Shown here: in pieces, positions 2,567-41,970 of the stretch | How the letters are laid out: the number at the start of each line of letters is the position of its first letter | Position numbering within the stretch: the stretch's first letter is position 1 | Origin: a virus | Direction: 5' to 3' (one strand) | Length of the DNA stretch: 64,000 nucleotides | IMG/VR virus record: IMGVR_UViG_3300044844_000428 | Notes under the pieces: model-generated | What the model was told of the DNA's origin: nothing | The model's database searches: none | What the model saw: only the letters and a program-made list of their open reading frames with translations | Position numbers and translations under genes: made by a program

Positions 2567-2640
2567 TGGAGCGGGATAAGGGAATCAAACCCTTACTAGG
2601 AGATTGGAAATCTGCTGTTCTATCATTAAACTAATCCCGC
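2567..2640 (-). tRNA. tRNA-Gly(TCC)
   Basis: Cloverleaf GCGGGAT...ATCCCGC-T-CCA, anticodon loop TT-TCC-AA. Confidence 0.9.
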
Positions 2641-2698
2641 AATATAAAGGGCGTATTCTGTTTTTAACGTGGGCCACGCCTAGCACCATTTCTACATT

Positions 2699-2774
2699 TG
2701 GAGCCACTGAAAGGAATCGAACCCTCAACCCCCTGATTACAAGTCAGGTGCTCTACCAATTGAGCTACAGTGGC
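2699..2774 (-). tRNA. tRNA-Thr(TGT)
   Basis: GCCACTG...CT-TGT-AA...GTTCGATT...CAGTGGC-T-CCA. Confidence 0.95.
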
Positions 2775-2791
2775 ATTTAAAATTTATTAGG

Positions 2792-2865
2792 GGTGACTAG
2801 TGGGACTTGAACCCACAAAATCTCGAATCACAATCGAGGACGTCTACCAATTCCGTCATAGTCAC
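2792..2865 (-). tRNA. tRNA-His(GTG), no encoded CCA or G-1
   Basis: GTGACTA...TT-GTG-AT...GTTCAAGT...TAGTCAC-C followed by CCT. Confidence 0.85.
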
Positions 2866-2886
2866 ACCTAATAAATCTTTGTAAAG

Positions 2887-2970
2887 TGGTGGAGATCCCT
2901 GGATTCGAACCAGGTGCCCTTTGGGCACGGGTTTACAGCCCGCTGCAGTCGCCTATGCCGCTCGACCTCC
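2887..2970 (-). tRNA. tRNA-Tyr(GTA)
   Basis: Anticodon loop CT-GTA-AA, long variable arm, ends ACCA. Confidence 0.92.
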
Positions 2971-2989
2971 ATTATTTCGTATTTATAAT

Positions 2990-3064
2990 TGGACTCCATG
3001 ATCGGATTTGAACCGATACCACAAGGTTTTGCAGACCTGCACACTACCATTATGCTACATGGAG
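2990..3064 (-). tRNA. tRNA-Cys(GCA)
   Basis: CTCCATG...CT-GCA-AA...GTTCAAAT...CATGGAG-T-CCA, U73 discriminator. Confidence 0.92.
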
Positions 3065-3074
3065 AAATTATAAT

Positions 3075-3203
3075 GTGCTTGTCTTTCCAAGCTGTCACCA
3101 GTCCACTCATTGTGCACAAGCTGGTTTGGTGCACTCCTATCTTATTTAATTCCCGATAGGCTAAGGAGAAACAAGAACCCCGACCCTTACGGTTAGGCTT
3201 GTA
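3075..3203 (-). ncRNA. candidate structured ncRNA between tRNA-Ile2 and tRNA-Cys
   Basis: GC-rich spacer with hairpins CC-GTAA-GG, CCTATC/GATAGG, GTGCAC/GTGCAC and GCTTG-GAAAGA-CAAGC, plus a possible ACCAG/CTGGT pseudoknot. Confidence 0.5.
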
Positions 3204-3205
3204 TT

Positions 3206-3281
3206 TGGTGCCCCCACCAGGACTTGAACCTGGAACCTACCGATTATGAGTCGGGTGCTCTACCAATTGAGCTAAAGGGGC
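3206..3281 (-). tRNA. tRNA-Ile2(CAT), lysidine type (alternatively Met)
   Basis: GCCCCTT...CGA-CT-CAT-AA-TCG...GGGGGC-A-CCA. The body resembles bacterial ileX-type tRNAs. Confidence 0.85.
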
Positions 3282-7489: not shown

Positions 7490-8032
7490 TCATACTAATT
7501 CTCCGTATAATGAATCAAGAGTAGAAGTGCTTAATAATTTCTCTTTTAATACTTTATCTTTTTTTAATACTTCTGGCTGTTCAACATTAGAAAATTGTTG
7601 TAAGAATTCTCTGTAAGAATTCACAAATTCTACGTCGTCATCATGCCCCTGCAGATCTAAGACTTTATTTCCAACAGATTGTATAATTTTGTGTTTAAGA
7701 AGAAATTGATGTTTTTCTTTTGCAATTCTTCTAAGATAAGCAAAATAGACTATTTGAGTAAAGTATGCAAATGGATTAGAATATTTTTCGTGATCGAATT
7801 TATCAAAGTATAGTATGCAGTTTTCAATAGCATCAGAAATCATTTCGTCTTTGAATGAATAACCATTAAAATTGCCTTTTGCTGCTAATTTTGAGGCGAT
7901 TAGTAAGATACATTCACCAAGGTATTCAGTAATGACTGGTTTAGGAAGACCCTGTTCCTCTGATAATTTTAATAGTTGTTTTCTTTCTACAATAGCTTCA
8001 TAGAAGGCTTTGTTGTCTATATAATCTGCCAT
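7490..8032 (-). CDS. gp55: late-transcription sigma factor
   Basis: YIDNKAF...NFNGYSFKDEMISDAIENC...NPFAYFTQIVYFAYLRRI. Start MADY at 8032. Confidence 0.95.
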   Translation of the reverse strand: MADYIDNKAFYEAIVERKQLLKLSEEQGLPKPVITEYLGECILLIASKLAAKGNFNGYSFKDEMISDAIENCILYFDKFDHEKYSNPFAYFTQIVYFAYLRRIAKEKHQFLLKHKIIQSVGNKVLDLQGHDDDVEFVNSYREFLQQFSNVEQPEVLKKDKVLKEKLLSTSTLDSLYGELV

Positions 8033-8062
8033 GATATAACTCCAATTAGTTTTGTATTCTTT

Positions 8063-8091
8063 ATTATATAATGCAAACACACATTTGTAAA
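8063..8091 (-). promoter_or_regulatory. early/middle-type promoter for gp55
   Basis: (G)TTTACA-17-TATAAT. Confidence 0.7.
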
Positions 8092-16245: not shown

Positions 16246-16653
16246 TTAGATTGATTGGATAGTACTTAATTGATCTGTATTTTTATAACCAGAAACCTTT
16301 TTAAGTCTAACCCAAAGTTCCATATTGCCAGTACCAGTAACAGTAAACACTAATGGATATGTATTATTGATTGGATCGTTAGCAAATCCAGCTTCTGATA
16401 AATTGATACTACCAATAGTATTAGATTGGAAGGTATATGACCTTACAGAATTTCTATCAATAGCAATAGTACAATCAGCATTGCCAGACCAAAATAGATT
16501 AGCAATATTAACTTTCTGAGTAGCACCATTCAGTGCTTCGTTTACTGCAAGGATATCCGTTGTCAAGTTAAGTGTTGCTGAACCAGCAGTGCCTGCAACT
16601 TTAACAACAACATCGCTATAGGTTTTTGATACAACTGTTATAGTTACAGCCAT
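16246..16653 (-). CDS. hypothetical virion protein
   Basis: 135-aa beta-rich ORF in the head operon, ending LKKVSGY. Confidence 0.7.
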   Translation of the reverse strand: MAVTITVVSKTYSDVVVKVAGTAGSATLNLTTDILAVNEALNGATQKVNIANLFWSGNADCTIAIDRNSVRSYTFQSNTIGSINLSEAGFANDPINNTYPLVFTVTGTGNMELWVRLKKVSGYKNTDQLSTIQSI

Positions 16654-16656
16654 CTT

Positions 16657-17007
16657 TTATTCCTTAATTGTTTCTTGAATAACACTAAAGAAGTTATCTT
16701 TAGATTCATTCATAAAATTAATTGCTTTAGTATTATTTATTAAAATCTGATTTAGGAGATTCTGTGTTTCTTCGGTAATTGAAACACAAGAACCGTCATC
16801 CAAAGTATATTCATACCGACAACTTAATGAAGATTGTTTCTCTCTTAACTCCAATATTACTGGATCAACTGTAAATCTATTGGTTTCCAATAACGAAGAA
16901 TAAGATTCAATTAAAGATGGACTTGCTTCAACGCCGTAATGTTCTTTTATAGAATTGGATATATTCTTTTTGATACCAATAGATTGTACAAAAGATGAAT
17001 AGTTCAT
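16657..17007 (-). CDS. prohead core protein, gp68-like position
   Basis: Synteny gp20-gp67-gp68-gp21; LDDGS.V.I motif. Confidence 0.55.
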   Translation of the reverse strand: MNYSSFVQSIGIKKNISNSIKEHYGVEASPSLIESYSSLLETNRFTVDPVILELREKQSSLSCRYEYTLDDGSCVSITEETQNLLNQILINNTKAINFMNESKDNFFSVIQETIKE

Positions 17008-21301: not shown

Positions 21302-22993
21302 TCAGAAATTCATCATGATTTCTTTATCTGATTCATTCCCATCATTCAACCAACCAGTAGGCACCATCTGTTCATCTATAAGTTTCATTCTATCTTCATA
21401 GATTGACTTTCTCATATCAATGTTATTAAGTGCAGTAAAATATGGATCTGTAGTTAACCATGCAAAAAGGACCAATGTCATGACAAGATCATCGTGATAT
21501 CCATCATCGGCTGCATAAGAACCTTTCGATTCGATAAACGTCGAGAATTCTGCAATGATATCAGCATCATATACTAATAGTTTATTTTCTTCTATTAGTG
21601 TTTTAAGATTATTACAACCTATTCTCTTTATTTTCTTATCAGTATTGACACCTAATCTTGATTGCCCACCAAAGCCACCGGAAATACATTGACCTTTGGA
21701 ATTTCTTCCAACTGATAGTATATTTTCATATTCAAGATCTGCATGGAGAATATAACTAACTTGTTCAGAACTATTTATCTCCATAAGTACAAATGCTTCA
21801 TTATAGTCATTAGCAATTTTATAGATGACATTTGGATATAGAAGTGGACTTATGTTATTATCTCTATATTTTGCCACAACTTTATATGGAAGTTGGGTAA
21901 CATCTATAACTGTAAATGCTGAATAGTCACCACCAACACCTTTTGATGTATCCACAACCATAACATAACTATGGAATTGTATTGGATATTCAATAATGTC
22001 TAATCCATTATTGGAGTGTATATAAGAAATAGGTCTCATTTTGGACATTACATCACTACCAATAAGTGTATAAGATGAACCCAGAAAGTGCATCAAAACT
22101 TCTTGGTTGTACTTAATTTCACCTAAAAGTTGTTTCTGTTTGGCTGCCCATACTTCATTATGTAAAGGATGTTCCCAGTATTCAACTCGTTTATGAATAA
22201 ATCCATTTATATTTCGTTCTGCTTCATCCCACATCTTCCAAAAATGGTTGAAACCAATTGGTGTTGATGTTATAATAACCTTTGAAGATTCACCAGATGA
22301 GATTGTAGGATAAGTTGAAGCAAAGAATTCTTCAGCTACTGTGCCAGGTACGCTGGACAGTTCATCAAGATATAATAGGTTAACTGACTTTCCCCTAATT
22401 CCAGACGCAGTCGTGGCAGCAATAAATGCTTTGCTTTTGTTCTCTAGAGCTACTGAACCTTTATTCCATTCGACAACACCCTGTTGAAGCCATATTGGAA
22501 GTTCTTCATACATAAGTTGAAACCGTGCCATAACTTCACGAGCAGCAGCAACTTTGTTACCCAACATAGCTACATTTTTACTTTCATTGAATACACAATA
22601 CCAGACAAGATAAGCGGCAACCGTGGTTGTATTATGAGATAGAATGTCATTAGTATAGAATGTATGTTTATCGGAATCTATAGATAAGTCATACATATTT
22701 TCAGAATATCCCAAATTATCTAATCGGATGACTTTAGAGTTTCCTAACTTAGTTCTTATATGACAACCTAATGAATTCTTGGCAAATATTTCGTTATAAT
22801 CGGAATCGATGAGAATGTGTGTATCTGCGCATTTAAGACGTAATCCAGTATCTAATATTATTTCATATACTTCATATTCTATAGTTTTATTGGATGATAG
22901 TATATCAACAAAACCATCTTCAGTTTCAACTTCCCAATCCGAAACATTGATGGATTCTACGAATTTTCTAGTTACATTATCAGAAAGACTCAT
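21302..22993 (-). CDS. gp17: large terminase C-terminal part fused to a split-intein IntC (aa 1-121)
   Basis: Intein blocks KCADTH, MYDLSID and FYTNDILSHN, then TTTVAAY. Walker B LLYLDE, ITSTP, nuclease motifs VDTSKG and HDDLVM. Confidence 0.95.
   Translation of the reverse strand: MSLSDNVTRKFVESINVSDWEVETEDGFVDILSSNKTIEYEVYEIILDTGLRLKCADTHILIDSDYNEIFAKNSLGCHIRTKLGNSKVIRLDNLGYSENMYDLSIDSDKHTFYTNDILSHNTTTVAAYLVWYCVFNESKNVAMLGNKVAAAREVMARFQLMYEELPIWLQQGVVEWNKGSVALENKSKAFIAATTASGIRGKSVNLLYLDELSSVPGTVAEEFFASTYPTISSGESSKVIITSTPIGFNHFWKMWDEAERNINGFIHKRVEYWEHPLHNEVWAAKQKQLLGEIKYNQEVLMHFLGSSYTLIGSDVMSKMRPISYIHSNNGLDIIEYPIQFHSYVMVVDTSKGVGGDYSAFTVIDVTQLPYKVVAKYRDNNISPLLYPNVIYKIANDYNEAFVLMEINSSEQVSYILHADLEYENILSVGRNSKGQCISGGFGGQSRLGVNTDKKIKRIGCNNLKTLIEENKLLVYDADIIAEFSTFIESKGSYAADDGYHDDLVMTLVLFAWLTTDPYFTALNNIDMRKSIYEDRMKLIDEQMVPTGWLNDGNESDKEIMMNF
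22631..22993 (-). mobile_element. split intein C-fragment (IntC, 121 aa)
   Basis: Ends His-Asn, followed by Thr+1 of the Walker A GKT. Confidence 0.92.
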
Positions 22994-24057
22994 CTTTTAT
23001 AGGTTTCCTTAAAAAGATTCTCACAGTACTCTTTAGATGAAAGATTATTATATTTTGCCATAAGATTAGAAATATCAGATTCTTCAATAACTTCTGTCCA
23101 ACCAAAACTACCATAATCATTTTTGCGTATAGTGTCTTTGTAATCAAATTTTAATATTTGTTCTATGTAAAAAGCGTGCTTAATAGAATCAACTGCTTCA
23201 AATAATAAAACTTTGTATTTCGACAGATATTCTTTATGATATCTATGATATATTGTCGGTTTTGAGGTTATTCCAATCTTATATTTATTTTCAGAAATCT
23301 GAATGATATAAAAACTGCCAGGATCAGTAAGATCTTTATTCCATAAAGATTTAAAATTTATCTTTGTAGATTTACTTCTATTTATAGATTCAATCTCATC
23401 TGGTGATTTACTCAATAGTGTCTTTTGCCAATTCAACTGTCTTTCAGTCCAGATTTCCCGACCTCTGTTTTTGCCATGTTTAGCAATACATATTTCCAAA
23501 CTAAAAGTTCTCTGTCTATCTGACAAGGAAGTATTTGCTTCTTCAACAGTCATACCTCGAGAAGTGTAATATTCTATCTTAGTGTTATCATTATTGTTTA
23601 TATTCTTAGTGACAACCCCCTTTTTCTTAGTGTTAGTTATTCTTTCTAACATCTCATTCTCGGGGAGTTCATTATATTTTATAAATTTCTCACTAAAAGG
23701 CGATAATTTTCCTCCATGATTATGCCAGGGATTATTATCGCCTTTCATCTTATCTATTGCCTTTTGACTGTGAACTGGACCATATTTTGTTATATACTCG
23801 CCAGGAGTCATATCATGGGACAATGGATGAGTGCCAAGATTATATGATCTGAATCCACATAATGCGCATTCACTATAATTATAGGGATCAGAACCATCAG
23901 GATATTTTAGTAAAGATTTCTTGGCTTTCATCGCGCGATAATTTCTTGTTTGATATTTTGATTTGCAATTATCTGAACAGAATTTTGCATTATGATGGCG
24001 TGGTATAAATACATCATCACATTCTTTGCATTTTATGGAATTCTTCAGCAGTGACAT
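22990..24057 (-). mobile_element. free-standing homing endonuclease between the split-intein halves (Zn-finger N-terminus, GIY-YIG/T5orf172-like C-terminus)
   Basis: CKEC...FCSDNC, CALC...H...H, GSFYIIQI...YKIGIT...R, GWTE. ATGA overlap with the IntC gene. Confidence 0.8.
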
Positions 24058-24370
24058 TTAAGGTTTCTCCAGTTTTTTTATTTCGTACCTTATATATCGT
24101 TTCTTTGCCGACACACTTCCCATGCTGTCTCGGAAACATCCCAATTGATCTAGAATTGTTATGAATGGTATTGATAAAATCTATTTGGTAATCAAATAGT
24201 TCAAATGGAACTAATCCATAATCAAGAGTAATGATTTTTATGTAAGTTCTTATGAAATATATGGGGTCGGATTTGCATTTTACATATTCTTGGACTTGGT
24301 ATTCCGTATAATCGACAGAAACACCAATAGATTTTAGGTTTGGATTTGAATTGTATGTCAAAGAAGCCAT
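24017..24370 (-). CDS. gp17: large terminase N-terminal part fused to a split-intein IntN (last 32 aa)
   Basis: YNSNPNLK...EYVKCKSDPIYFIRTYIKI...LFDYQ...PRQHGK, then CVGKETIYKVRNKKTGETLNVTAEEFHKMQRM and stop. Confidence 0.95.
   Translation of the reverse strand: MASLTYNSNPNLKSIGVSVDYTEYQVQEYVKCKSDPIYFIRTYIKIITLDYGLVPFELFDYQIDFINTIHNNSRSIGMFPRQHGKCVGKETIYKVRNKKTGETLNVTAEEFHKMQRM
24020..24115 (-). mobile_element. split intein N-fragment (IntN, 32 aa)
   Basis: Cys1 directly after the Walker A Lys; block A-like CVGKET. Confidence 0.9.
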
Positions 24371-24378
24371 AATTAGTG

Positions 24379-24407
24379 TTTACTTTTTCGTATAAATAAG
24401 ATATAAT
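24379..24407 (+). promoter_or_regulatory. overlapping early-type and late promoters facing a non-coding structured region
   Basis: (G)TTTACT-17-TATAAT with TATAAATA (24391-24398) inside the spacer. Confidence 0.7.
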
Positions 24408-24412
24408 TATCA

Positions 24413-24700
24413 CATAGCCTATATAATTACTGGACAATGGGACACCAGTTGCATGAGCAGGAACCTACCCCTGCCAGATGAGGATCGGGAATTTTCCTGT
24501 ACCCTGTAGTAGCCAATCTACAAATACGTCTGCCGTTATAGCAAAACTTGCAATGCAGACATGGACGATAAAGTTCAATATTATTCGCAGGTCGGATGTT
24601 TCTTTATCAGAATTCCAGTTTTTGCATCGGACCTACACGGCGCAGTTTATATAAACCATCAATGTAGGGCTGGAAAAATACCAAATAATCTAGTAGTCAA
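24413..24700 (+). ncRNA. candidate structured ncRNA or origin primer RNA
   Basis: ORF-free, GC-enriched, serial stems ACTGG/CCAGT, GCAGG/CCTGC, TGTAG/CTACA, GTCTGC/GCAGAC, AGGTC.GATG/CATC.GACCT, CCTACA/TGTAGG. Confidence 0.55.
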
Positions 24701-24818
24701 GTGGTTGCGAACGCAGTGAGCAATCCACCATTCGTGAACGCAGTGAGCGAATTAAAAGGTCAATATTAGTATTAATCTGTTCAACCATTCACTGCGTTCA
24801 TGGTTGCGAGCAAGCTCG
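24701..24818. repeat. three GAACGCAGTGA-capped hairpins (two on plus, one on minus) and a fourth small hairpin
   Basis: Motif at 24709-24719 (+), 24736-24746 (+) and 24789-24799 (-), each closed by a different stem. Confidence 0.85.
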
Positions 24819-24828
24819 TGTATCAACA

Positions 24829-25554
24829 TTAGAATCCAGTTGGTGTATTATTTGACCATGTATCTATTATAAAAGTATCAGGTACATTAGATTTAACAAA
24901 ATAATCCAATGGTTGATTTGGTAAAGTAACATTGGCTTTCTTGATAACACCAGATGAAGTAATGGATCCAAATATATTTACTTTCATGGTAAAGTTAAAT
25001 GTATAAATTATTTCCCGTCTTGATTGAAAATCACCATCATAAGAATCCTGGAAACTTACATTATTCAAGATGATTGGTACATCGTTTACTATATTCAAGT
25101 CTGGAATAGCATTAATCGATAGTGTATAATCTGGTGTAAAGACTGGCAAGATTTGTTCAACTACTGCTAATGCATCTTCTGTTGTTTTGGTTAAAAGACT
25201 TAATTCTATATCCAGATTGTATGGAACGGGACTGAATTGAGTTTTTAAAGTAGTTTGGTCATAACTAGCAATCTTGGTCATCTTGTTGGATTTTCTTGAG
25301 GCATCGTAAGTATAACCAACAATTTCAAATGCCATTCTAGGAAGAATAGTATTGACGTTATTTTCCAGGTTTGGATCTTGTTCCAATCTAACTAGCCATT
25401 TTTCTTTTGGACCATAAGCAATTGGTACATTGATGGTTTGTAATACAGCACCTGCTTCATCCATTCGCTCGATCTGGATTTCTGAAAACATCCGTCCGAA
25501 TGCTACAATTGCTTTCTTTATAATGCCAAAATAATATGGAGGATTGTTTAGCAT
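24829..25554 (-). CDS. gp15: tail sheath stabilizer/completion protein
   Basis: VPIAYGPKEKW, LPRMAFEI, PVPYNL, VEQILP.F.P. Confidence 0.95.
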   Translation of the reverse strand: MLNNPPYYFGIIKKAIVAFGRMFSEIQIERMDEAGAVLQTINVPIAYGPKEKWLVRLEQDPNLENNVNTILPRMAFEIVGYTYDASRKSNKMTKIASYDQTTLKTQFSPVPYNLDIELSLLTKTTEDALAVVEQILPVFTPDYTLSINAIPDLNIVNDVPIILNNVSFQDSYDGDFQSRREIIYTFNFTMKVNIFGSITSSGVIKKANVTLPNQPLDYFVKSNVPDTFIIDTWSNNTPTGF

Positions 25555-40804: not shown

Positions 40805-41206
40805 TTATACGATTTCGTCTAATTCTTCATGAGTAGTTGCCGATGAAATTGCTTCCAGTTTGGCAATCATATCTAATCTTGTTTGTTCTACTACTACAGC
40901 ATCATAAATCTCAGAATTATCTGCAATTTCATTGTGTGCTTGTTGATTTGCAGTCTGTAAAAATAAACTTCTTGCTTTGTTTTTTTCATTAGATTTTCTT
41001 TCATCCAATGACGCTTCTATAATAGAATATGAAACTTGTATTGGTGTTTTCGATAAATCGTATTGAGGAATTGCCAACTGTTTTGTAGTAAGTGTAGGTT
41101 CTTTTTCAGTTAAAACTGCATCTCTCCAAGTAGAATCTAGTTCTTGCGGAAGTTTCCATAAGTTAATTGAACCATCATCGTTTATTCTTACTTTAACTAT
41201 ATTCAT
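40805..41206 (-). CDS. hypothetical protein, possible fibre assembly chaperone
   Basis: SLDERK...AISSATTHEELDEI tail. Start MNIVKV after AGGAG. Confidence 0.55.
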   Translation of the reverse strand: MNIVKVRINDDGSINLWKLPQELDSTWRDAVLTEKEPTLTTKQLAIPQYDLSKTPIQVSYSIIEASLDERKSNEKNKARSLFLQTANQQAHNEIADNSEIYDAVVVEQTRLDMIAKLEAISSATTHEELDEIV

Positions 41207-41217
41207 TTTATTCTCCT

Positions 41218-41970
41218 TTAAATGTAATTGATTTCTGTTGTTTTCTTCTTGTGGATCCATTTTCTGTAGAATCCAGGTGCCGTAGTTCTATAGGTAAAAT
41301 CTGCTTTGCCACTTTCTTGTTGTGTTATATATCCAACATCTGCTGTAATATTTTCTCTTTTATATGGTATAACATGAAGTAACGGCGTACCGGCGTAAAT
41401 CTTAACGTGCATTTTTCTCAAAGGAGAAAACATTACATTTATAGTATGATAAGCGTCATAATCATTTATACCAGGATACAAAAATAAATCTCTCAAGAAA
41501 GGAGAATGAAATAATGCTGGCATAACAAAGGCAGAATATCCTGGTTTAGTAAAAACTTTCCATGGACATGGCAGTTTAAGAGCATGATGATTGATATCGT
41601 CATCTATATTAGCTGAACCTGCAACTACTCTATAATCCATTCTTTGAAATGGTTTGCAAGGAAATTGTGGTCCATTACCTATAATTATATCCGCTTTTTC
41701 TTCATCTACAATGATTTCAAAATCTTCCCAAGCAGGAATAATATATCCAGTTCTGTAATAATCGTGCATTCCAGGACACGCAGAGAACTTATGAGTTCCA
41801 TTTTTCTCAGCATCCTTTAACTGTTTAGTTAACCAATCCGGTTTAATATCCATTGCTCGTTTTACTGGTTGACCAACCTCATATCCAGGAACGTCACACT
41901 TGAATTTTATCATAGGAGATGTGTCTATAGAATTCAAAATTGCATTTTTAACATTAGATAATATAGACAT
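41218..41970 (-). CDS. hypothetical protein (DUF6065-like), paralog B
   Basis: PDW...CPGM.D....GYIIP.W...PW...T.PGYS..V.P...GI.D.D...AGTPL..VIP.KR. Confidence 0.7.
   Translation of the reverse strand: MSILSNVKNAILNSIDTSPMIKFKCDVPGYEVGQPVKRAMDIKPDWLTKQLKDAEKNGTHKFSACPGMHDYYRTGYIIPAWEDFEIIVDEEKADIIIGNGPQFPCKPFQRMDYRVVAGSANIDDDINHHALKLPCPWKVFTKPGYSAFVMPALFHSPFLRDLFLYPGINDYDAYHTINVMFSPLRKMHVKIYAGTPLLHVIPYKRENITADVGYITQQESGKADFTYRTTAPGFYRKWIHKKKTTEINYI

Follow-up and report, generated by a model that had tools for sequence, protein, structure and literature searches.

Few viruses of aquatic habitats are more abundant than T4-like phages, and to our knowledge almost nothing is known of their non-coding RNAs (ncRNAs) beyond transfer RNAs (tRNAs) and two orphan species of T4. 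Another phage, phi29, makes a structured RNA, the pRNA, which has a link to the packaging ATPase and is expressed by an early promoter. The two T4 species, rnaC and rnaD, are phage-encoded, stable, non-coding RNAs to which no function has been assigned and which depend on the host polymerase for their transcription (NC_000866). T4-type phages also carry PeSL cassettes, which join a strong sigma-70-like promoter to stem-loops and serve as recombination points that shuffle modules (PMC2839356). Other multi-helix RNAs with strong covariation and no assigned function, namely GOLLD, ROOL and the viral candidates of PMC10690425, come from phage or metagenome DNA, including that of lakes and oceans; 14 candidate RNAs of that survey lie upstream of another terminase family (PMC10690425). 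Here we describe an element in the gap between the genes for the tail sheath stabiliser gp15 and the large terminase TerL (458 nt, 24371-24828) in a 64,000-nt stretch of DNA (the window) from an uncultivated T4-like phage (IMG/VR record IMGVR_UViG_3300044844_000428), where the surrounding genes all lie on the minus strand. We propose that the plus strand from 24379 to ~24820 is probably a free-standing gene for a previously undescribed, trans-acting structured ncRNA of T4-like phages.

The proposed RNA would share the listed properties of rnaC and rnaD, but these are 139 and 119 nt long, against 260 nt or more here, and lie in a tRNA cluster; the tRNA cluster of the window (2567-3281) is 21 kb from the RNA gene. 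A covariance model of the RNA (R1), run with filters off over positions 68000-76000 of T4, gave nothing on rnaC/rnaD (70908-71171), and its best T4 matches had E values of at least 0.6 and lay elsewhere. A cmscan of 24200-25000 against Rfam 15, on both strands and with E up to 10, returned no family match; three chance-level hits, to two microRNA families and one thermometer, scored 14-21 bits against gathering scores of 50-130. The multi-helix build, strong covariation and unassigned function are like those of GOLLD, ROOL and the viral candidates, but neither these two nor any other Rfam family matches the RNA. From the comparison with Rfam 15 and rnaC/rnaD, we conclude that it is a new family among the orphan structured phage RNAs; PMC10690425 lists over 10,000 further candidates that are unnamed. 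Covariation, promoter conservation and the lack of an Rfam match agree in this respect, and they bear out the suggestion of an undescribed ncRNA made in an initial annotation of the window.

Relatives were collected through gp15 in IMG/VR, by a gp15 protein search and the corresponding contigs, by an exact 18-mer in metagenomes and by two gapped motif scans, and profile and covariance-model searches (nhmmer; R1) were run over all of the collected DNA (~0.8 Mb). Homologues of the core of the element form nine sequence variants on ~20 environmental phage contigs: the window type (the window, L004, L005 and L088; ~99% identical), L003, L006 (also L100), L103-105, L107-109 (also L117 and L120), L110, L111, L119 and the divergent L118/L121/L122. 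R1 matched the 5' domain of the core in the window with E=3.5e-28 and recovered all relatives.

Judged by covariation among these variants, the core, ~260 nt on the plus strand at 24413-24673, is a real structured RNA of many hairpins. At least eight core helices keep their pairing through compensatory changes, and the loops and joining strands between the helices are invariant (Table 1). For the 5' half, five helices were written onto a MAFFT alignment (A6) and their pairs counted; 94% of the cells were paired, and 12 of the 22 pairs showed a two-sided change. None of 500 shuffles equalled the real alignment in its pairing, in its numbers of pairs or cells with two-sided changes, or in its covariation score, and control helices in which the partners were slid by 1-3 columns were 35-53% paired. 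The count of further pair types was no different from that in shuffles (270/500). In the 3' domain, for which the alignment (A7) was untuned and some rows were misaligned by insertions or deletions, 82% of cells were paired, two-sided changes occurred in 11 of 28 pairs, one of 500 shuffles was as good, and slid controls were 27-44% paired. Ten helix segments were also aligned by hand for eight sequences, and the resulting table contained 327 Watson-Crick, 25 G.U, 3 A.C and 13 other cells, with at least two Watson-Crick pair types at 25 of 46 positions; in these counts two invariant C residues of the window type enter both helix X and outer helix Y, and the arms of the short inner hairpin of Hf are placed by eye.

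The individual helices show how freely the stems change. Ha occurs as ACUGG/CCAGU, GUUGG/CCAAC, GUCAG/CUGAC, UCUGG/CCAGA and GCGUG/CACGC; its 11-nt loop retains AUGGGACA in most variants and has AUAGGACA in L119. Hb occurs as GCAGG/CCUGC, CAUCG/CGAUG, AUAGG/CCUAU and CAAGA/UCUUG around AACCU(U/A)CC, and Hg as UGGAC/GUUCA, UGGUC/GAUCA, GUCUA/UAGAC, UGUCA/UGACA and GAUCG/CGAUC. L119 was met after the helices had been defined and was not used in defining them; it kept all of the helices that were checked, with the same loop sizes and new pairs.

Folding energy, by contrast with covariation, was unremarkable. The z-score of the whole gap was -2.95 on the plus strand and -1.60 on the minus strand, and that of the core ranged from +0.6 to -2.2 over eight variants and both strands, so that z-scores separated neither the element from shuffles nor the plus from the minus strand. 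The case for structure therefore rests on covariation and not on stability. Serial stem-loops had been read from the window by the initial annotation, which had recommended a covariation test on the gp15-gp17 regions of related phages. A long-range TTCCAG/CTGGAA pairing that it had also pointed out exists in the window and is not kept in the alignments of relatives. A closing helix between AUAGCC and a 3' GGCU was likewise rejected; it is present in the window, L004, L110 and L111, bulged in L103 and L107, and absent from L003, L006 and L119. Kissing of the Ha and Hb loops, and pairing of the Hb loop with GGAGAGG, showed no compensating changes and were set aside. Two invariant single-stranded stretches, the predicted 5' end (AUAGCC, 24413-24419) and the He loop (UAGCCAA, 24510-24516), both contain UAGCC, and they may represent a single recognition element present in two copies.

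Immediately upstream of the core stands a promoter of the sigma-70/T4-early type (Table 1), which scores 10/12 and is the top promoter-like site within 24000-25200; its -35 box is 9 nt from the ATG of the TerL N-terminal fragment, on the opposite strand. The layout of -35 box, 17-nt spacer and -10 box is retained in eight of ten variants though the bases differ, with -35 boxes TTTACT, TTGTTA, TTGTAA, TTGACT and TTGACA and -10 boxes TATAAT or TATACT. In L003, L006, L103, L110, L111 and L119 the invariant AUAGCC follows the -10 box at a distance of 6 nt, or of 9 nt in L119. L122 has near-consensus TTGACT/TATAAT boxes ahead of its own, different 5' end, and the promoter of L107 is unclear. The predicted start of the RNA is near 24414. 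The spacer of this promoter contains the T4 late-promoter motif TATAAATA, as the initial annotation had noticed, and (T/G)ATAAATA is found at the spacer position in the window, L004, L003, L006, L103, L110 and L111 and not in L119 or L122. A late motif would be meaningful in this phage because a gp55-like late sigma factor is encoded in the window (7490-8080) and several further intergenic TATAAATA motifs stand ahead of genes.

Watson-Crick pairs do not discriminate between the strands of a covarying element, and wobble pairs do. On the plus strand, the hand-aligned table has its 25 G.U cells against 3 A.C cells. The model-aligned 5' domain has 158 Watson-Crick, 11 G.U and 7 unpaired cells when read as plus strand and 158, 1 and 17, respectively, when read as minus strand. 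Moreover, helix Hc has G.U at its second pair in each of the first eight variants and in L119, while the neighbouring pairs change, and G-C there in L121. From the G.U excess together with the positionally conserved promoter, we infer that the RNA would be a plus-strand transcript, antisense to gp15, TerL and the late structural operon.

No promoter-like site was found on the minus strand inside the gap, so a late messenger RNA (mRNA) that reaches TerL must contain the complement of the RNA. This raises the alternative that the functional molecule is the minus-strand (sense) RNA, a structured spacer or 5' leader of the late gp15-TerL mRNA that sets the amount of TerL. Every Watson-Crick helix forms on the minus strand too, the element is directly upstream of TerL in six lineages, and, read in the sense direction, gp15 is followed by hairpins with U-runs in L107, a feature that is less clear in L110 and L111. 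We consider a sense leader unlikely, and hold the same view of control of TerL by such a leader through termination, processing or translation: it is at odds with the wobble count, with the conserved Hc pair, which would become an A.C mismatch in the first eight variants and in L119, and with a promoter kept at a fixed distance on the plus strand. In addition, the homologue in L121/L122 is not near TerL or gp15, and a promoter of its own drives the plus orientation.

The plus-strand transcript would not be an mRNA. The longest open reading frames (ORFs) in the gap are 58 and 52 amino acids (aa) on the plus strand and 37 and 29 aa on the minus strand. No gap ORF is kept across relatives, and no reading frame is common to the variants compared; the initial annotation's view of the gap as devoid of a credible ORF is upheld, and the small ORF that it had named as a possible objection was not found. 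The 29-aa minus-strand frame has a similar look in the window, L003 and L107 and is interrupted by an insertion or deletion in L006. In L006 the AUGGGACAC frame is closed by a stop at its fourth codon, and the position of its start codon is taken by UUG in L003 and by AUA in L119. By its reading frames, then, the core RNA is non-coding. Its GC enrichment, also noted previously, was confirmed: the GC content is 40% in the gap and 42-48% in most 50-nt bins of the core, compared to 34% in the window.

The same data bear on whether the gap holds a decayed protein gene (a gene-16 or homing-endonuclease remnant) or a gene for a small peptide. The size of the gap is close to that of a gene for a 140-aa TerS, TerL is a hotspot for inteins and endonucleases in this clade, and the 29-aa frame recurs in three variants. 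The changes within that frame, however, are the compensatory pairs of Ha and not synonymous changes, and in distant relatives the core is more conserved than coding DNA (67-71% identity to L110, L111 and L107, compared to 63-67% for flanking gp15/TerL coding DNA). A gene-16 remnant (PF11053) was rejected directly, as no ORF exceeds 58 aa and tblastn with three TerS proteins (Melnitz, MbCM1 and L123) gave zero matches in the gap. A decayed or peptide-coding gene is contradicted by the tests run and is scarcely credible.

Each carrier contig has one copy of the RNA, and neither nhmmer nor the covariance model detected a second copy in the window. The homologue in L121/L122 (R1 E=3e-4; nhmmer E=1e-8) is in an early-type region, and the divergent RNA region of L118/L121/L122 is beside PhoH-like and topoisomerase genes. 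Past the RNA of L121/L122 there is a long hairpin with a U-run and then a new promoter ahead of the next ORF, and the ORFs that adjoin it have no counterpart in the window. The first metagenome scan, with the exact 18-mer, gave 4 true and 12 chance matches. The second viral motif scan and the genome-contig scan gave, beyond the known family, only chance coding matches (L124-L130), and a single scan for an exact motif across 185,579 species genomes of bacteria and archaea found no bacterial copy, its three matches being chance matches in coding DNA.

Comparison of the gap with its flanks indicates that the element has a history of its own. The window and L004 are 98.5-99% identical over the whole gap, including the variable tail, but 88% identical in gp15 and 87% in the start of TerL; the window and L003 show the reverse pattern. 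This discordance, the two genome locations, and the presence of an early promoter and end hairpins fit exchange by recombination, and these comparisons suggest that the RNA module travels as a cassette of promoter plus hairpins, both from phage to phage and from one genome site to another. A near-identical module despite 12-13% flank divergence, two genome locations, an early-type promoter and a hairpin module are likenesses to PeSLs. Unlike the RNA described here, PeSLs are short, occur in many copies in hyperplastic regions and flank ORFs (PMC2839356). Here the strong early promoter is present, many dispersed copies are not seen within the window, where the hairpin motif is at a single locus (24709-24799), and the cassette carries a 260-nt conserved RNA.

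The hairpin array that the initial annotation had placed after the stem-loops was found as a module of three hairpins downstream of the core (Table 1). GAACGCAGTGA is present in the array as two direct copies and one inverted copy. A related motif, GARCGMAGYGAG, is found in hairpins past the core, on different stems, in L003, L006, L103, L107 and L121; the 11-12-mers read GAACGCAGUGA in the window and L103, GAACGAAGUGAG in L107, and GAGCGAAGCGA in L003, L006 and L121, with looser forms in L110 and L119 and none seen in L111. The three-copy layout is the same in L121 (~498-508, 517-527 and 571-581). Because the motif in the window and L121 is twice direct and once complementary, two mutually exclusive pairings are possible, and the layout may be a conserved two-state switch or a terminator/antiterminator. 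The hairpin module may be part of the RNA, may terminate it, or may act on the sense transcript of gp15. Although hairpins are present, a terminator scan of 24000-25200 found no hairpin with a U-run; L121 and L107 do have a hairpin plus U-run. In L111, three direct, iteron-like AAGCAGATT repeats lie in an AT-rich stretch beside the 3' end of the core (1745-2004, sense orientation), and these repeats were seen only there.

The initial annotation had interpreted the element as a replacement of gene 16, which encodes the small terminase TerS, in its usual slot. The order gp15-TerS-TerL is indeed found in 51 of 89 loci that carry a gp15 relative, but not in the window's clade or its nearest outgroups. 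Relatives without the RNA also lack TerS in the slot: gp15 abuts TerL in L007, L008, L055 and L116, a small Mtd_N-like ORF of 106-114 aa occupies the slot in L112 (1759-2103) and L114 (1792-2112), and a 299-aa fibre-like ORF does so in the L009-L025 group (L022 6766-7665), with a similar N-terminus, MAKQDLNIGTLANDGTGD. Since the slot lacks TerS in these relatives too, TerS had left the slot, or become unrecognisable, before the RNA came and independently of it. Moreover, an 80.6-kb IMG/VR contig with the divergent RNA (L118) has TerS between gp15 and TerL (E=7e-23 to Melnitz TerS) and the RNA elsewhere. These results correct the idea that the RNA has overwritten the gene-16 slot. The gp15-TerL slot can be described as a variable cargo site.

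The suggestion that TerS had been relocated or lost was followed within the window, where tblastn with the three TerS proteins and Pfam and PHROGs searches of 20 small ORFs found no TerS. A word-index search with L123 TerS, of limited sensitivity, gave 115 matches, none of them on a contig that agrees in length with the clade's 143-149 kb genomes. In pelagimyophages, which are related T4-like phages, TerS is reported for all 35 genomes compared (PMC7029224). The search of the window covered 64 kb of a ~143-kb genome, less than half, and because more than half of the genome lies outside it, the apparent absence of TerS is not evidence. Five minus-strand ORFs of 116-151 aa (16246-16653, 16657-17007, 867-1313, 1313-1708 and 40805-41260) have no Pfam or PHROG match, and none is TerS-like by sequence. 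The first two of these are between the portal and prohead-protease genes, in the position of T4 gp67/gp68.

An element beside TerL in six lineages, in a clade in which TerS escaped the searches above, invites comparison with phi29 pRNA, and the initial annotation had raised a role in packaging initiation. The RNA would then be a packaging cofactor, either a pRNA-like ring or a DNA-recognition RNA for TerL, that replaces or assists a missing or unrecognisable TerS. We found no positive evidence for such a cofactor and regard it as very improbable. The phage of L118/L121 has both a canonical TerS and, at another place, an RNA homologue; the relatives that lack TerS in the slot lack the RNA as well (L007, L008, the L022 type and L112-116); and the promoter is of the early type. 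The RNA also differs from pRNA (RF00044): the Rfam search, with E up to 10, gave no match to that family, and a TerL of the T4 type is absent from phi29-like phages. No complementary loop pair of the kind expected for a pRNA ring is evident among the conserved loops AUGGGACA, AACCUUCC and UAGCCAAA.

A strong promoter that fires into a non-coding stretch is also the arrangement of R-loop primers, such as T4 oriF/oriG and ColE1 RNA II, and an RNA-primed origin was the other function first proposed for the element. Its independence of location would suit an origin module, and the AAGCAGATT repeats just past the core in L111 could be counted in favour of one. Positive evidence for an origin was not obtained, and we judge it improbable. 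The repeats are in one variant only; there is no MotA-box-like TGCTT at -30, where direct reading of 24371-24407 gives GTTTACT in the -35 region; by eye, no conserved AT-rich unwinding element lies downstream of the core in the sequences compared; and GC skew is flat over 14-36 kb. Unlike R-loop primers, the RNA has the conservation pattern of a folded molecule: invariant 8-11-nt loops on covarying stems exceed what an R-loop primer needs and point to a folded RNA, not to a mere RNA-DNA hybrid.

We return to a free-standing gene for a trans-acting structured RNA. In this model, host RNA polymerase would transcribe the RNA from the start of infection, the embedded TATAAATA would perhaps add late transcription, and the 3' end would fall in or past the downstream hairpin module. 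Invariant 8-11-nt loops and joining strands on freely changing stems, with no downstream ORF, suggest that the RNA would act in trans as a folded particle and not as the leader of a downstream gene; it would likely bind a protein, for which it could be a scaffold, decoy or cofactor. Ribozymes and RNAs that bind proteins or ligands appear to have such anatomy, and seed-pairing small RNAs and leaders do not. A riboswitch or cis-acting leader was rejected, as the plus strand downstream of the core contains only the antisense of gp15, and in L121 the hairpin with its U-run and a new promoter intervene before the next ORF. The late gp15-to-TerL transcript would carry the exact complement of the RNA, and RNA-RNA pairing could tune TerL expression.

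Several points weigh against this model. The start, end, strand and expression of the RNA are all deduced from the DNA, and its part in a trans-acting ribonucleoprotein (RNP) is a guess from anatomy. Helix Y, the closing helix and all tertiary contacts are unsupported, and for most variants the folding energy of the core is not better than that of shuffled sequences. The alignment comprises about nine distinct, related sequences, and the shuffle control ignores their shared descent. The minus strand, which is present in late mRNA, is nearly as well paired as the plus strand (90% compared to 96% in the 5' domain).

Multi-helix RNAs of at least 250 nt with invariant loops and heavy covariation are rare and have historically been ribozymes, riboswitches or RNP cores. 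With its early promoter and its phage-specific, apparently mobile cassette, this RNA is a clean candidate for a phage function not yet described, be it in take-over, anti-defence or regulation. The RNA gene is back-to-back with the terminase gene in most carriers, and the late mRNA there includes the complement of the RNA, which offers a directly testable link to TerL expression. Apart from the corrected gene-16 slot, the finding is real and merits follow-up.

Table 1. Features of the gp15-TerL gap and its flanking genes in the window
Feature	Position	Strand	Remarks
TerL N-terminal fragment	24017-24370	minus	aligns with the beginning of TerL in L004, L005 and L103, where it is unsplit (527 aa)
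Sigma-70/T4-early-type promoter	24379-24407	+	-35 TTTACT 24379-24384; 17-nt spacer; -10 TATAAT 24402-24407
TATAAATA, T4 late-promoter motif	24391-24398	+	in promoter spacer; motif match, putative promoter use
5' domain	24413-24531	+	begins with CAUAGCC box (UAUAGCC in L110/L111; AUAGCC invariant)
Helix Ha	24429-33/24445-49	+	loop AcaAUGGGACA
Helix Hb	24457-61/24470-74	+	loop AACCUACC
Helix Hd	within 5' domain	+	
Helix Hc	24486-90/24495-99	+	
Helix He	24506-09/24518-21	+	loop UAGCCAAU
3' domain	24526-24673	+	helices Hf, Hg, Y, AU hairpin and X
Helix Hf	24528-33/24555-60	+	inner hairpin and conserved ACUUGCAAU
Helix Hg	24562-66/24573-77	+	
Helix Y	24590-98/24625-33	+	weakest helix; zero two-sided changes
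Helix X	24632-37/24663-68	+	competes with outer Y for two C residues in the window variant
AU hairpin	24645-49/24652-56	+	
3' hairpin module	24701-24818	+	three hairpins
Hairpin 1	24701-24728	+	loop GAACGCAGUGA at 24709-24719
Hairpin 2 (long)	24735-24800	+	11-mer in 5' arm 24736-24746; complement 24789-24799
Hairpin 3	24807-24818	+	
gp15, tail sheath stabiliser	24829-25554	minus	PF16724, E=1.1e-69; converges on the RNA gene

The TerL gene next to the RNA gene is itself interrupted. In the window it is split inside the Walker A motif (21302-24370, minus strand): the N-terminal piece ends in RQHGK followed by C, an endonuclease-like ORF of 355 aa follows (22990-24057), and the C-terminal piece begins with an intein tail that ends in SHN before TTTVAAY and gives a weak match to PF14890. 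TerL is split in the same way in L006 (6936-10088) and is an unsplit protein of 527 aa in L004 (2318-3901), L005 and L103 (2886-4469). Other intein or endonuclease insertions are found in TerL of L107, L110, L111, L114 and L116. As the relatives carry differing insertions of this kind, TerL is an insertion hotspot in the clade.

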